A DNA stretch of 32,000 nt from contig NC_021219.1 of the NCBI RefSeq assembly GCF_000392435.1, positions 60,001-92,000 on the forward strand, read 5' to 3'. Shown here piece by piece: positions 2,650 to 25,793 of the stretch. The translations under genes were made by a program, and so were the position numbers. Source of the DNA: Candidatus Saccharimonas aalborgensis. GTDB lineage: Bacteria; Patescibacteriota; Saccharimonadia; Saccharimonadales; Saccharimonadaceae. The notes below the pieces were generated by a model. That model did no database searches, was not told the DNA's origin, and saw nothing but the letters and a program-made list of their open reading frames with translations. Position 1 is the stretch's first letter. Each line of letters starts with the position of its first letter.

Positions 2650-3903
<1,254 letters not shown>

Positions 3904-3910
3904 CTTGAGC

Positions 3911-4018
3911 CTCACCACCTCCCCACTCCGAACACCGGCCCGCCGCTAACTGACTAGCTTTCGCCTTGGCGGGCCTTGGCCCATCAGGGCCAACTGTCTG
4001 TCGGGGGAGGTGGTGATA
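3911..4018 (-). repeat. GC-rich structured repeat element, family B, copy 2 (inverted relative to copies 1 and 3)
   Basis: The reverse complement aligns to copy 1 across the core, with small indels in the large loop. Perfect 13-bp closing stem tcaccacctcccc (3913-3925) / ggggaggtggtga (4004-4016). It lies between the convergent stops of tgt (3903) and yhhQ (4029). Confidence 0.9.
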
Positions 4019-8902: not shown

Positions 8903-9000
8903 AAGTATAGCGTATTCCTCATATTTGACTTTTAGTGATATTTTGACAGATGCCTCCAGACACGGGTCATTATCATAGGAAAGCGGTATCTCTCCATGCA

Positions 9001-9031
9001 AAGAACTCTCGGGTTTTGACCGAGAGTTCTT
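9001..9031 (-). terminator. Hairpin terminator downstream of rplS
   Basis: Perfect 12-bp inverted repeat aagaactctcgg / ccgagagttctt with a 7-nt loop, 21 nt after the rplS stop. The minus-strand 3' arm runs into UUCUUU. Confidence 0.65.
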
Positions 9032-9051
9032 TAGTATATAGCTCTAATTAT

Positions 9052-9576: not shown

Positions 9577-9698
9577 CTTCTACTCGCTTATCATTTAGTA
9601 TTACAATTCGACTATCAACTATAGCATACTTCTGGACATTTTAAAAGAGGCTAGACGCCTCAATCGGTAGGGCGGGGACAAGGAGAGAGCGGTGGTGG

Positions 9699-9730
9699 TG
9701 CAGGGAGTCCTCTTTCGAGAGCTCCCTGCA
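9699..9730 (-). terminator. GC-rich hairpin with GAAA loop 3' of the 67-aa ORF
   Basis: Minus-strand UGCAGGGAG-CUCUC-GAAA-GAGGA-CUCCCUGCA has 9 bp plus 4 inner pairs and no U-tract. A weaker gaggc/gcctc hairpin followed by UUUU lies at 9661-9643. Confidence 0.5.
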
Positions 9731-9750
9731 CCGTGCGGCCGAGTCAGGGC

Positions 9751-9954
9751 CTACCGACCCATGAGGGCCGGCCACGCCCCGAAGGGCGACGACACCGGGT
9801 CGAACGGGCTCGGCCGGTCGAGGATCTCGTCGGGGACGAGGGTCTCCTCGACCCAGACCCCGTAGACCGTCGGCTCGACGAAGGCCGTCCCGTCGAGGTT
9901 GACGACAAACTGGCCGGGACGCAGGACGACCACGACGGTGGTGCGCTCGAACAT
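9751..9954 (-). CDS. Small GC-rich hypothetical protein (67 aa)
   Basis: AGGAG (9965-9961) lies 6 nt before the ATG. 64 of 67 codons end in G or C, as in a high-GC coding frame. The overlapping 133-aa and 95-aa track ORFs are alternative frames. Confidence 0.6.
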   Translation of the reverse strand: MFERTTVVVVLRPGQFVVNLDGTAFVEPTVYGVWVEETLVPDEILDRPSPFDPVSSPFGAWPALMGR

Positions 9955-10017
9955 GGATAGCTCCTAATCTCACTCTGCCCACGATGGGCAAACACCACAG
10001 CCGGAACGTCCCGACGA

Positions 10018-10071
10018 GTGCTGAGTGGCAACGATAGTCCAACTCGTTAGCCTATCATTGCCCCTCAGCAC
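10018..10071 (-). promoter_or_regulatory. Long leader hairpin in the 5' UTR of the 67-aa ORF
   Basis: 20-nt arms at 10018-10037 and 10052-10071 with a 14-nt loop. On the minus-strand RNA 18 Watson-Crick pairs, one G-U and one mismatch form. A second 5-bp hairpin lies at 9976-9990. Confidence 0.55.
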
Positions 10072-10124
10072 ATACTCTCTCCTTGTCAAAGATCGTGTGA
10101 GGTTATCTCACAACGAACAAATAC

Positions 10125-10153
10125 ATTATAGCACATTATGCATTAATTTGCAA
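10125..10153 (-). promoter_or_regulatory. Near-consensus promoter TTGCAA-17 nt-TGcTATAAT reading into cassette 1
   Basis: ttgcaa at 10148-10153; -10 is the reverse complement of attata at 10125-10130; 17-nt spacer ending in tgc (extended -10). It sits in AT-rich sequence just outside the right inverted repeat. Confidence 0.65.
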
Positions 10154-10177
10154 GCATCTTGTACTCCGCCAGGTCTC

Positions 10178-10675
10178 CTAACGGCCAAATAATCCGCCGA
10201 GAAACCCATTCTTTTTTTTCGTCCAGCCTGATTTCTCAAGTAGTTCAAAGAGTGGCTTCTTGATCTCGCTCGTATCGAAACTATACGAGTAAGTCATTCC
10301 ACCGATCGATACACTACTCTGCGGTTGTTTCGCATGCCCAAGGCCAAATCCCATTTCTTTACCTATCTTATGGCCTTTGAATCCTCCCATTTCGCCTCCA
10401 AATGATATGGTACCGTTTGTGAGAAGCGAAAAACCACTAGATTTACTTGTCTGCGTGTCCTGAGAAGTGTACGTATGCGTCAGTTCATCGAGCATCACTA
10501 CAAGCTTAAATGTCTTTTCGACATTGTTGGCGGCAAGTGGAGCCGCCCAAATAGCGTCGAGATATTTCCATTCGGCAACAATCTTGTTTCCCTGGACGGA
10601 ATAGGAGAATGGTCTTTCTGGCAGATTTAGTTGGTTAATTGCTGAAATTATTTGTTCGAGAGATAGTGGCTGCAT
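10178..10675 (-). CDS. Hypothetical protein (165 aa) with a Gly-rich central segment
   Basis: Track ORF lying 6 nt downstream of the preceding gene. No family recognised. Confidence 0.65.
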   Translation of the reverse strand: MQPLSLEQIISAINQLNLPERPFSYSVQGNKIVAEWKYLDAIWAAPLAANNVEKTFKLVVMLDELTHTYTSQDTQTSKSSGFSLLTNGTISFGGEMGGFKGHKIGKEMGFGLGHAKQPQSSVSIGGMTYSYSFDTSEIKKPLFELLEKSGWTKKKNGFLGGLFGR

Positions 10676-10681
10676 TGCAGA

Positions 10682-11164
10682 TTACTCTATCTTTGCTTCT
10701 AATGAGCTGTTGCTCGAGCGAAAATTCATCACGCGCCAATTATCACCGTTTTTTTCGAGGATGACACGGATGTACTTCGTACCCGATGATGTATCGACCG
10801 TATAGACGATGATCGCCTTTTGCGAAGAACCTGCGGTGGTTTCTACCGCACGTGCAGTCACCTTCTCGTCTCCTTGTAATGCGGGAGAGACCCGTTTGAT
10901 AACTGCATCGAGATCATCTCTCGATGTCGCACCTCGGAAGCCCTCGCTCGTTAACGCATAGGCTGCCTCGGTGTTTGCCGACTGTACATCGTTGACAAAC
11001 TCGTCACTTACCTTCTTTGGGGAATCTGTCATATTCATGACGACAATAAATATCACTCCTCCCACAATCAATAGTCCAAAAATCACGCTGATAAGTACTA
11101 CGAGCCAACGAGGAACTTTGCCTGAAGCATAGTTATTTTTTAAGTGTGTTGTTGGTGTTTTCAT
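10682..11164 (-). CDS. Membrane-anchored hypothetical protein (160 aa), NTF2/DUF4878-like ectodomain by eye
   Basis: N-terminal TM helix WLVVLISVIFGLLIVGGVIFIVV followed by a soluble domain. TAGATT lies 6 nt before the ATG. Confidence 0.65.
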   Translation of the reverse strand: MKTPTTHLKNNYASGKVPRWLVVLISVIFGLLIVGGVIFIVVMNMTDSPKKVSDEFVNDVQSANTEAAYALTSEGFRGATSRDDLDAVIKRVSPALQGDEKVTARAVETTAGSSQKAIIVYTVDTSSGTKYIRVILEKNGDNWRVMNFRSSNSSLEAKIE

Positions 11165-12414: not shown

Positions 12415-12537
12415 GAGTCTCAAACCCCTCCTCCGACAGACAGTTGGCCCTGATGGGCCAAGGCCCGCCAAGAGCGAAGGCTGATTTAGTTAGCGGCGGG
12501 CCGGTTGTGTGGAGTGAGAGAGTATGAGACTTGAGAC
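12415..12537 (+). repeat. GC-rich structured repeat element, family B, copy 3
   Basis: The core is nearly identical to copy 1 (gtctg to gtgtg and gggg to gaga changes at the 3' side). The ends gtctcaa (12417-12423) and ttgagac (12531-12537) are complementary. It fills the gap between convergent stops at 12411 and 12537. Confidence 0.9.
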
Positions 12538-25092: not shown

Positions 25093-25121
25093 TTGACTAA
25101 ATAAATCATGTGTGTTATAAT
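25093..25121 (+). promoter_or_regulatory. Consensus promoter TTGACT-17 nt-TGtTATAAT reading into cassette 2
   Basis: ttgact at 25093-25098, tataat at 25116-25121, 17-nt spacer ending in tgt (extended -10). AT-rich, divergent from gatC. Confidence 0.7.
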
Positions 25122-25194
25122 AAGATCAATGTCTTAGGAATACATCCTTTCGTTGACAGCAACTTTAACAAGCTAGGAATACGCCTTCATTCCT

Positions 25195-25240
25195 GAATCG
25201 CACCGACTCATCAAACATACTTGATGGATGAGTGCGATTC
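25195..25240 (+). promoter_or_regulatory. Leader hairpin in the 5' UTR of the 130-aa ORF
   Basis: gaatcgcac (25195-25203) pairs with gtgcgattc (25232-25240), and actcatc with gatgagt inside; about 16 bp with a 2-nt bulge. Confidence 0.5.
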
Positions 25241-25278
25241 GGGAAGCTCAGTACCGACGCAGAAGTGGAGCCCATATC

Positions 25279-25671
25279 ATGAACTTCACTCGTATCGGCC
25301 GTCGTAACCGTGGCCGCACCGGTGCGGCGCTGCTCGTCATCGTCGGGCTCATCGCCGTCATCTGGTACATGGTGGCGGCGAACACCACCCACACGACGAC
25401 CATCACGGTCTGCAACAAGGAGCGGGTCGCGGTCAAGAACTCCGGTGAGTACCGGATCTACGCCGCCGAGGGGACGTTCGTCATGGCGGACTCCCTGCTC
25501 GGGACGGTCCGCTACGACACGGCGGACGCCTACGCGAAGGTGAAGCCCAAGACGACCTACGACGTCGTCTACAAGGGCTGGCGCATCCCCTTCTTCAGTT
25601 CGTTCCCCAACTTGCTCGAGCTCAAGGAGTCGGCCACGCAGCACCCGGAGGCCTGCGCCAACTTCGGCTGA
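25279..25671 (+). CDS. GC-rich single-pass membrane protein of unknown function (130 aa)
   Basis: Track ORF 25228-25671. ATG 25279 has GGAG 8 nt upstream. The basic N-terminus RIGRRNRGR precedes the TM helix AALLVIVGLIAVIWYMVAA. All but about 8 codons end in G/C. C-terminal motif YKGWRIPFFSSFPN. Confidence 0.65.
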   Translation: MNFTRIGRRNRGRTGAALLVIVGLIAVIWYMVAANTTHTTTITVCNKERVAVKNSGEYRIYAAEGTFVMADSLLGTVRYDTADAYAKVKPKTTYDVVYKGWRIPFFSSFPNLLELKESATQHPEACANFG

Positions 25672-25684
25672 CCGTCGGCAACGC

Positions 25685-25721
25685 GTGCGGGCTGGCGGGA
25701 CCTTGTCCCACCAGCCCGCAC
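25685..25721 (+). terminator. 17-bp GC-rich hairpin 3' of the 130-aa ORF
   Basis: gtgcgggctggcgggac (25685-25701) pairs with gtcccaccagcccgcac (25705-25721) with one C-A mismatch. There is no U-tract, as in high-GC organisms. Confidence 0.5.
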
Positions 25722-25793
25722 CGGCAATTCCTAGCTTGTTATCTCTCAGCTCCCACAGGGGAGTAATTTTATTGTCTTTATTTAGTTGTATGG

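Follow-up and report, generated by a model that had tools for sequence, protein, structure and literature searches.

Type I toxins are small hydrophobic membrane peptides, usually under 60 aa, whose antitoxin is a cis or trans antisense RNA. Their mRNAs, such as those of hok/sok from plasmid R1 and aapA/IsoA from Helicobacter pylori, carry a small stand-alone open reading frame (ORF) behind a long structured leader, have a very stable predicted fold and are closed by pairing between a 5′ element and a CU-rich 3′ element. In the hok and aapA toxin mRNAs, this long-distance 5′–3′ interaction keeps the message stable and untranslated until its 3′ end is processed (PMC6733600). Phage morons form a second relevant kind of gene: single genes with their own promoter and terminator, of a composition unlike that of their neighbors, patchily present and placed between unrelated genes. 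Here we describe a locus that resembles both, found in a 32,000-nt stretch of the Candidatus Saccharimonas aalborgensis chromosome (contig NC_021219.1, positions 60,001 to 92,000; hereafter the window). The locus, which we call unit 1, extends over approximately 9643-10162 of the window on the minus strand, adjoining the ribosomal protein L19 gene rplS. With moderate confidence, we interpret it as a laterally acquired, lineage-specific accessory mini-gene, the ends of whose mRNA would be clamped together as in type I toxin mRNAs.

Saccharibacteria are ultra-small epibionts on Actinobacteria with genomes of about 1 Mb. To our knowledge, little has been learned about how they gain genes or about the small proteins they may direct against hosts and phages, and we know of no description in this phylum of either a moron-like acquired gene or a clamped mRNA. 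Unit 1, as we read it, would combine these two, both of which are already known kinds. If the clamp is real, a form of post-transcriptional control known mainly from type I toxins reaches a new phylum and a new cargo, and if the repeats are incidental, the locus would still be an orphan gene with clear limits and variation between strains, though of modest interest.

Unit 1 has the layout of a complete transcription unit upstream of rplS

At the level of sequence, unit 1 is a complete transcription unit that consists of a promoter, a structured leader of ~160 nt, a Shine-Dalgarno (SD) motif, an ORF, a GC-rich hairpin and a final hairpin followed by a U-run (Table 1). A preliminary description of this DNA had listed the 13-bp perfect inverted repeats, the leader hairpin, the 5-bp hairpin, the 3′ hairpin with its GAAA loop, the AGGAG ahead of a 67-codon ORF rich in G/C-ending codons, and the TTGCAA promoter just outside the repeats, all of which we recovered; it had overlooked the U-run hairpin and a second promoter that belongs to rplS itself. 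Both repeat arms are located inside the inferred transcript, with 3 nt separating the 5′ arm from the leader hairpin that follows it and 7 nt separating the 3′ hairpin from the 3′ arm. AAGGAG occurs in the 5′ arm, which is rich in A and G, and the 3′ arm is CU-rich and anti-SD-like. The hairpin at 9643-9661, which is invariant in our alignment and falls between the right repeat arm and the rplS promoter, is judged from its sequence to be a likely weak terminator of unit 1. A mini-ORF (AUG-UGC-UGA) that follows the AAGGAG of the 5′ arm was also considered and was dropped, as its AUG is missing in one of the other loci (L106; loci are given by L numbers throughout).

Table 1. Positions of unit 1, the adjoining rplS promoter, unit 2 and the unit 3 scar in the window.
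Feature	Position	Strand	Description
Unit 1, candidate sigma-70-type promoter	10125..10153	-	TTGCAA, 17-nt spacer, TG-n-TATAAT; 10/12 consensus positions
Unit 1, small hairpin near 5′ end	10097..10111	-	GUGAG-AUAAC-CUCAC; all five pairs invariant in 8/8 aligned sequences
Unit 1, 5′ arm of perfect 13-bp inverted repeat	10075..10087	-	GACAAGGAGAGAG in RNA; CUUU precedes
Unit 1, long leader hairpin	10018..10071	-	~22 pairs; 26-nt arms, 85% complementary
Unit 1, second leader hairpin	10000..10015	-	GUCGGG-ACGU-UCCGGC; terminator-like in terminator scan
Unit 1, 5-bp hairpin	9977..9989	-	GCCCA-UCG-UGGGC
Unit 1, Shine-Dalgarno AGGAG	9961..9965	-	6 nt 5′ of AUG (ATG 9952-9954); GGAG in other alleles
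Unit 1, 67-codon ORF	9751..9954 (stop included)	-	orphan protein, predicted beta-strand-rich; GC3 0.96
Unit 1, GC-rich 3′ hairpin	9697..9732	-	GAAA loop, without U-run
Unit 1, 3′ arm of 13-bp inverted repeat	9677..9689	-	CUCUCUCCUUGUC; 7 nt 3′ of the 3′ hairpin
Unit 1, small hairpin + UUUU	9643..9661	-	GAGGC-GUCUA-GCCUC; overlaps -35 region of rplS promoter
rplS own promoter (candidate), outside unit 1	9618..9645	-	TTTAAA-16-TG-n-TATAGT
Unit 2	25093..25773	+	same design as unit 1; between gatC and amylase gene
Unit 2, candidate promoter	25093-25121	+	TTGACT-17-TG-n-TATAAT, 11/12 consensus positions
Unit 2, perfect 15-bp repeat	25166-25180 / 25727-25741	+	TAACAAGCTAGGAAT / ATTCCTAGCTTGTTA
Unit 2, leader hairpin	25190-25245	+	25 bp, 9 nt after left arm
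Unit 2, ORF	25279-25671	+	SD, 130 codons/aa, GC3 0.93, DUF1523 / phrog_301
Unit 2, 3′ hairpin	25685-25721	+	17-bp GC hairpin; right repeat arm 5 nt after
Unit 2, small hairpin + U-run	25749-25773	+	small putative terminator
Unit 3 scar	8921..8979 (about)	+	promoter remnant + 3′ end kept; leader, 86-aa ORF, most of hairpin gone

The composition of unit 1 sets it apart from its surroundings. G+C content by codon position in the ORF (GC1/GC2/GC3) is 0.69/0.44/0.96, compared with a GC3 of 0.57 for rplS and a GC of 0.51 for the whole window, and a 200-nt G+C profile reaches its maximum of 0.71 inside unit 1.

Unit 1 is upstream of rplS yet outside the rplS transcription unit, as at the sequence level rplS has a separate promoter (CTTTTAAAA...TGCTATAGT) that is conserved in species without unit 1 (L023, L043, L031 and L021). 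Homology with these unit-less species starts near 9650-9661 and runs towards rplS, and the distal TTGCAA promoter is not present in related species lacking unit 1. The TTGCAA promoter travels with unit 1, as homology between strains starts at 10162, and the inherited unit therefore extends from promoter through terminator and is not the stretch between the repeats. The preliminary description had suggested that a cassette bounded by the repeats may have inserted into the promoter region of rplS and taken it over; given the proximal promoter of rplS and the co-inheritance of the TTGCAA site, this idea is not supported, and of the cassette itself there remains a discrete, foreign-looking and lineage-restricted unit, with its boundary running from promoter to terminator and the repeats internal to it.

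The ORF encodes a variable orphan protein

By searching 5.8 billion proteins, followed by a profile search of 1.84 billion cluster representatives, we identified five alleles of the unit 1 protein, of 62, 67, 70, 70 and 74 aa, and no homologue beyond this locus of this species. The other profile hits among the representatives were repeat-rich proteins with short low-complexity matches, which we rejected as non-homologous. At 65-88% DNA identity, all five alleles retain the SD and the start codon and stay in frame for 60 codons, and the single indel in the N-terminal part of the ORF measures 3 nt and is thus in frame. The ratio of nonsynonymous to synonymous substitution rates (dN/dS) is 0.41-0.64 over 61 codons, and in a 36-codon core it is 0.3-1.2, as against 0.05-0.07 for rplS in the same strains. 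The C-terminal tail differs between alleles through frameshifts and indels. GC3 is 0.89-0.96 across all alleles, with C<->G as the most frequent third-position difference, an excess expected if the alleles diverged under strong G-or-C pressure at third positions. Judged by these patterns of sequence variation, the ORF is protein-coding.

The AlphaFold model of the 67-aa protein has a predicted local distance difference test score (pLDDT) of 61 and contains two long beta strands and a disordered tail; the protein is thus predicted to consist of an N-terminal beta-hairpin core followed by a variable disordered tail. The 67-aa sequence contains no hydrophobic run of membrane-spanning length. The preliminary description had recognized no family for the product, and none was found in Pfam, PHROGs, NCBIfam, PADLOC or a sequence search of the PDB, and a Foldseek search of the model against viral structures returned nothing below E = 0.7. 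Searches of 50,697 phage records with tblastn and blastn gave no match to unit 1, and viral contigs scanned both by DNA pattern and by protein profile yielded no relative of it. For Rfam 15, which includes ribosomal-protein leaders and among these the L19 leader, the gathering score was not reached anywhere in the window, with chance-level matches only (E up to 10). What this protein does and what purpose the repeats serve are matters of inference.

A 96-aa variant of the ORF was observed in L114 / L120:10001-10352 (contig OFQZ01000013.1 = ERZ1749620 NODE_13). Past codon 60, this variant continues into other high-GC coding DNA in a different frame (...YPATWLNG), and the extension has weak similarity to phage replication initiators; no homologue of the added peptide was found. 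We rejected the variant as a pointer to the donor, since it is probably an assembly chimera and sits 61 nt from the contig end; it could still be part of a larger high-GC island.

The complementary ends of unit 1 exceed chance and are predicted to pair

As a control, 200 nt of upstream sequence was compared with 160 nt of downstream sequence for each of 30 window genes. A perfect inverted repeat longer than 10 bp was present between the flanks of 2/30 genes only, and these were the two highest-GC3 ORFs, with repeats of 13 and 15 bp. Among 2000 random flank pairs, repeats of at least 13 bp were found in 4 and repeats of 15 bp in 0. The pattern seen in unit 1 is more than chance.

The unit 1 RNA has a fold z-score of -8.55 relative to dinucleotide shuffles, and the 13-bp repeat closes the minimum-free-energy fold, with a pairing probability of the two arms of ~1.0 in six alleles and 0.91 in L020. 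This predicted clamp leaves the ORF's own SD and AUG uncovered, both of which are ~110 nt downstream of the 5′ arm. In the mechanism that we propose, transcription would start at the TTGCAA-17-TATAAT promoter and end weakly at the small U-run hairpin before the rplS promoter, giving an RNA of ~475 nt made up of the structured leader, the SD, an ORF of 62-74 codons and the GC-rich 3′ hairpin. The 13-nt arms of this RNA would then pair, so that the finished mRNA would be shut by a 5′–3′ clamp with a hairpin on either side of it. Like the hok and aapA toxin mRNAs, which are the nearest precedent for such a mechanism, the clamped message would be compact and nuclease-resistant and/or translationally quiet until it is processed. 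The ORF, given its high-GC codon usage, would most likely have come laterally from a high-GC donor, for example an actinobacterial host or its phages, and would now be under weak or diversifying selection, with alleles exchanged by recombination through the conserved untranslated regions (UTRs). We infer the use of the promoter and terminator, the formation of the clamp in vivo, its action and the donor from the features described here.

Unit 1 is specific to one lineage and its alleles are recombination mosaics

In dozens of independent assemblies, every contig that encodes an allele carries unit 1 immediately 5′ of rplS within a Saccharimonas setting, and one cluster member of the 67-aa protein is annotated as Candidatus Saccharimonas aalborgensis. 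The L19 protein of the window is 98% identical to that of a metagenome-assembled genome bearing the same species name. Across 80 Saccharibacteria species representatives, unit 1 is present in the Ca. S. aalborgensis cluster only and absent at the rplS loci of all other species, and on this sequence sampling it is specific to one species-level lineage. In approximately 500 kb of sequence around rplS in other Saccharibacteria, we found no independent ORF that combined a high GC3 with repeats in its flanks. Of the observations that the preliminary description would have counted against its proposal, none was made: whichever allele is taken, the composition is unusual and the reading frame conserved, and the repeats accompany every occurrence of the gene.

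Between lineages whose rplS genes have a synonymous divergence of 0.14-0.19, the promoter, 5′ hairpin, repeat arm and leader of unit 1 are 87-100% identical, the ORF is 65-88% identical, and the ORF 3′ end together with the spacer is 32-47% identical. The promoter, which is kept along with the unit in most strains, has an identity of 97-100% except in L106 (66%) and in L020, which bears an insertion sequence (IS). L109 matches the window at 98-100% in the promoter, 5′ repeat arm, leader and 3′ hairpin, at 96% around the 3′ repeat arm and at 65% in the ORF, and L015 combines a window-type ORF with the other leader-hairpin type; these two patterns indicate that the alleles are recombination mosaics. 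The 5′ repeat arm shows no variation in any allele, and the 3′ arm is invariant apart from a single U-to-C change in L020. The hairpins between the arms do vary, and compensatory changes support three of them: six pairs of the 3′ hairpin show double changes of this kind, four of them in 4/8 sequences, and in the leader hairpin one pair changes from A-U to G-C in 4/8 sequences and a second appears as C-G, U-G or U-A. The 5-bp hairpin has a G-C to C-G double change in L106, and for the second leader hairpin no supporting covariation was found in the strain alignment.

Homology between strains begins at 10162, just upstream of the -35 box of unit 1, and the DNA beyond this point is strain-variable. 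In L008, L010 and L020 an IS30-like element replaces the TTGCAA promoter and the ORF is still intact; the small 5′ hairpin marks the left limit of homology in these IS-carrying strains. The element (HTH_38 / rve transposase; L008:2150-3302, L010 and L020:1-125) abuts unit 1 exactly at GTGAGATAACC. The copies in L008 and L020 have only their final 17 nt in common, which implies either separate insertions or a pair of related elements at one and the same position. Directly upstream of unit 1 in the window are two hypothetical genes encoding proteins of 165 aa and 160 aa (10178-11164, minus strand), which themselves vary between strains: the window, L007, L013-L018 and L109 have them, and they are absent from L001-L002, L005 and L106, where the malic enzyme gene is nearer to unit 1, and from L003, which has a phage-like gene instead.

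Units 2 and 3 share features of the unit 1 design

A second unit with the same design, unit 2, is found elsewhere in the window with its own 15-bp repeat (Table 1). Its protein belongs to DUF1523 / phrog_301 (‘secreted protein’) and has distant relatives in Gordonia, Mycobacterium, Arthrobacter, Vibrio and Bacillus phages. Where unit 2 occurs elsewhere, its UTRs and repeat are conserved, and the N-terminal third of the ORF is replaced in other strains. On an unrelated contig (L104), a gene 68% identical to unit 2 is flanked by a different repeat with the same geometry, in which 14/16 positions are paired; compared with unit 2, the outer six repeat pairs hold two A-U to G-C double changes.

Unit 3 is intact in several strains, where it sits between the rplS terminator and rnhB (L003:1870-2300, minus strand). 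It has a TTGACT-17-TATAAT promoter, a 60-nt leader, an 86-codon orphan ORF with a GC3 of 0.87 and a GC hairpin, and 7 nt after this hairpin is GGCCAUUUU, the complement of AAAAUGGCC, a stretch that spans the start codon; in two alleles this pairing changes to G.U. The 9-bp pairing is not significant alone, as 12% of random flank pairs reach 9 bp. As in the other units, the UTRs are nearly invariant and the ORF is variable, and the presence of unit 3 differs between strains. In the window it has left a scar (Table 1), through which the 348-aa rnhB ORF (TTG at 9001) runs; the rnhB start is therefore probably misplaced, other strains having an rnhB product of 313-315 aa.

The 5′ arms of these units start with a recurrent motif. 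CTTTGACAAG, CTTTAACAAG and CTTTGACGAG are found at 10082-10091 (minus strand), 25163-25172 (plus strand) and L104:104-113, respectively, and TTTTGACAAC is found at unit 3 (L003:2247-2256, minus strand), at the joining point of the window scar. The consensus CTTTRACRAG occurs 4 times in the window, compared with 0.2 expected, but was defined post hoc and has two of its sites inside ordinary genes, and we regard it only as a lead.

Discussion

Several points weigh against a laterally acquired gene with a clamped mRNA, the reading in which we have moderate confidence. The structure model of the protein is of low confidence (pLDDT 61) and has no fold match. None of the high-GC organisms and phages sampled has a homologue of the 67-aa protein, which makes the donor hypothetical, and the high GC3 could be maintained instead by selection on RNA structure. 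The promoter and terminator of unit 1 are consensus matches only, the terminator having 4 U and scoring below the threshold of the terminator scan. With regard to the clamp, a perfect 13-bp repeat is always predicted to pair, so the pairing probability is not independent evidence, and the 13 clamp pairs are invariant in eight sequences except for one unpaired change in L020, such that the unit 1 locus alone offers no covariation for or against it. The double changes between unit 2 and L104 cannot separate an RNA from a DNA role, as symmetric DNA sites would covary alike, and DUF1523 genes without such a repeat (L105 and L119) indicate that a clamp is not obligatory.

One alternative is that the repeats act at the level of DNA, either because a GC-rich segment was captured in the loop of a palindrome or because they are the terminal repeats of a non-autonomous mobile cassette, with RNA pairing as a by-product. 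We consider this unlikely, even though the repeats flank a compositionally odd segment in two units of the window, the genome holds perfect 13-bp intergenic palindromes (for example the rplS terminator at 9000-9032) together with an insertion-polymorphic repeat resembling miniature inverted-repeat transposable elements (MITEs) that has a 13-bp terminal repeat, CTTTRACRAG begins the 5′ arm in each of unit 1, unit 2 and L104, with a similar TTTTGACAAC at the unit 3 scar junction, and unit 3 shows gain or loss between strains. The repeat sequences differ among units, so one transposase could not recognize them all. The promoter and terminator are outside the repeats yet are co-inherited with them and missing from other species, and the allele exchange in L109 stops at the ORF, not at the repeats. 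In viral and metagenome contigs, the 21-nt left-arm junction was seen only at the unit 1 locus (three contigs) and in a chance 22-nt match in L116; target-site duplications were not found at unit 1 or unit 2, and the neighboring ORFs scanned include no transposase or integrase beside either unit. The scan of metagenome contigs also found no empty site with joined arms, as would be left if the unit had been inserted into a pre-existing hairpin as the preliminary description had considered, there being no repeat halves joined by 0-30 nt. A role of the repeats at the RNA level is favored instead because they are placed inside the inferred transcript, because the same placement relative to the leader and 3′ hairpins is seen in units with unrelated repeat sequences, and because the non-coding parts are more constrained than synonymous sites. 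The idea that the repeats are recombination sites of an invertible DNA switch, the flipping of which would toggle the ORF or read-through into rplS, is extremely improbable: short inverted repeats do surround a segment just downstream of a strong promoter, but a single orientation of the ORF relative to rplS in ~35 loci from many samples disfavors it, as does the single orientation of unit 2 with respect to gatC and the amylase gene. The ORFs scanned beside the two units include no recombinase gene, and rplS has its own promoter.

The other rivals concern what the RNA encodes. A type I toxin-antitoxin pair, in which the toxin mRNA would be kept inert by the clamp until 3′ processing and an antisense RNA would serve as the antitoxin, would account for the predicted 5′–3′ pairing, the long structured leader and the very stable predicted fold, as for hok and aapA (PMC6733600), as well as for the small stand-alone gene and for arms of which one is CU-rich and anti-SD-like and the other AG-rich with AAGGAG. 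We nevertheless think it quite unlikely, and membership of unit 1 in this class is not supported. The 62-74-aa product, for which a beta-hairpin and a disordered tail are predicted, is no hydrophobic membrane peptide, and the clamp does not mask the SD or AUG of the ORF, with unit 3 as a possible exception. No antisense RNA gene is evident, and a consensus scan of the other strand over 9640-10160, which cannot exclude one, found no promoter-like site. The gene has foreign codon usage and its alleles vary greatly, with a dN/dS near 1 and a tail varied by frameshifts that would be unusual for a tightly controlled toxin, and in some strains the IS30-like element has replaced the promoter with the ORF intact. 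We hold it to be very unlikely that the ORF is an accident of high-GC sequence, be it within a structured non-coding RNA such as a regulatory leader of rplS, or the product of an assembly artefact or contamination. Stop codons are few in GC-rich DNA and the antisense ORFs are open too, and the very low fold z-score and the position directly upstream of a ribosomal protein gene would suit a non-coding RNA. Against this, threefold periodicity is strong (GC3 0.96 vs GC2 0.44), the SD and AUG are conserved, the frame is kept across 65-88% identical alleles with an in-frame indel, no Rfam family matches, that of the L19 leader included, and the rplS promoter is downstream of unit 1. An assembly artefact is excluded, since dozens of independent assemblies repeat these junctions together with native flanking sequence.

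Set beside other described elements, the clamped mini-gene that we favor resembles phage morons in being a single gene between unrelated neighbors with its own promoter and terminator, matched at the sequence level, an odd composition, and a presence that is patchy between species (unit 1) or strains (unit 3); unit 2 moreover belongs to a phage-type family, DUF1523 / phrog_301. The units differ from morons in being located in a cellular chromosome beside housekeeping genes and not in a prophage, and their end-to-end repeat and long conserved UTRs fall outside the moron concept. As for an identifiable donor or homologues, our searches gave none for unit 1 and distant phage relatives for unit 2 only. 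Integron cassettes are likewise short single-ORF units with an imperfect palindrome and foreign, variable cargo, but the units described here have their own promoter, are dispersed, and have arms around the ORF rather than one 3′ site. Reading the hairpins of units 1 and 2, with no dedicated attC model run, we saw no attC-type site (RYYYAAC...GTTRRRY), and the ORFs scanned include no integron integrase. With MITEs and palindrome-associated elements the units share short repeats at both ends of a small segment, and a genuine MITE-like repeat exists in this genome; they differ in that each unit repeat is unique to one locus, single-copy and without target duplication, and that unit 1 carries a gene whose regulatory signals are outside the repeats. 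RNase III stems, as in rRNA precursors and phage T7 early mRNAs, also use flanking complementary sequences to define RNA ends, and hairpins of 22-26 bp are found nearby in the units, but a stem of 13-15 bp is short for RNase III. A retron was considered and rejected, the segment being protein-coding and its neighbors (L19, the 165-aa and 160-aa hypotheticals and malic enzyme) including no reverse transcriptase.

There are thus at least three independent mini-genes in this species with host-like codon usage, conserved UTRs and a variable coding part, some of them gained or lost between strains. Such mini-genes are natural candidates for conflict or interaction factors and offer a concrete case for studying gene flow between the epibiont and its host or host phages. 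Some Saccharibacteria phages are reported to be targeted by actinobacterial CRISPR spacers (PMC10746230), and this link between phages and Actinobacteria is a conceivable route for gene transfer into Saccharibacteria. As a long shot, we speculate that clamped mini-genes, with their high-GC-host codon dialect, native promoter, structured UTRs, clamp and rapid diversification, form a family that amounts to a system dedicated to the epibiont lifestyle, which might either capture and domesticate genes of the host or its phages at TTTRACRA sites, by a route not described before, or supply effectors, as protein or stabilized RNA, that act in or on the host.

Other mini-genes and repeats in the window

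A 116-aa orphan ORF (2194-2544, GC3 0.82) is located between queA and tgt within 2150-2612 on the minus strand. It has its own candidate promoter (TTGCAA-17-ACATAAT) and a short leader but no 5′–3′ repeat, and it may be a fourth foreign mini-gene, without a clamp. A 46-nt terminator module, in which a GC hairpin is followed by TTTGCTTT, is duplicated with 98% identity at 1410-1455 and 2133-2178, one copy coming after a 198-aa ORF and the other after the 116-aa ORF.

The MITE-like repeat is GC-rich, measures ~115 nt, is bounded by a 13-bp terminal inverted repeat and has a hairpin inside it. Its three copies in the window, at 226-341, 3902-4015 (inverted) and 12421-12516, are 98-99% identical in their shared core (46-91 nt), and an extra copy beside unit 3 in L001, L003, L004 and L020 shows that the repeat is insertion-polymorphic. 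Between rplS and rnhB, the perfect 13-bp palindrome AAAGAACTCTCGG-GTTTTGA-CCGAGAGTTCTTT at 9000-9032 resembles a bidirectional terminator, and it indicates that native hairpins of this genome match the stem length of the unit repeats.

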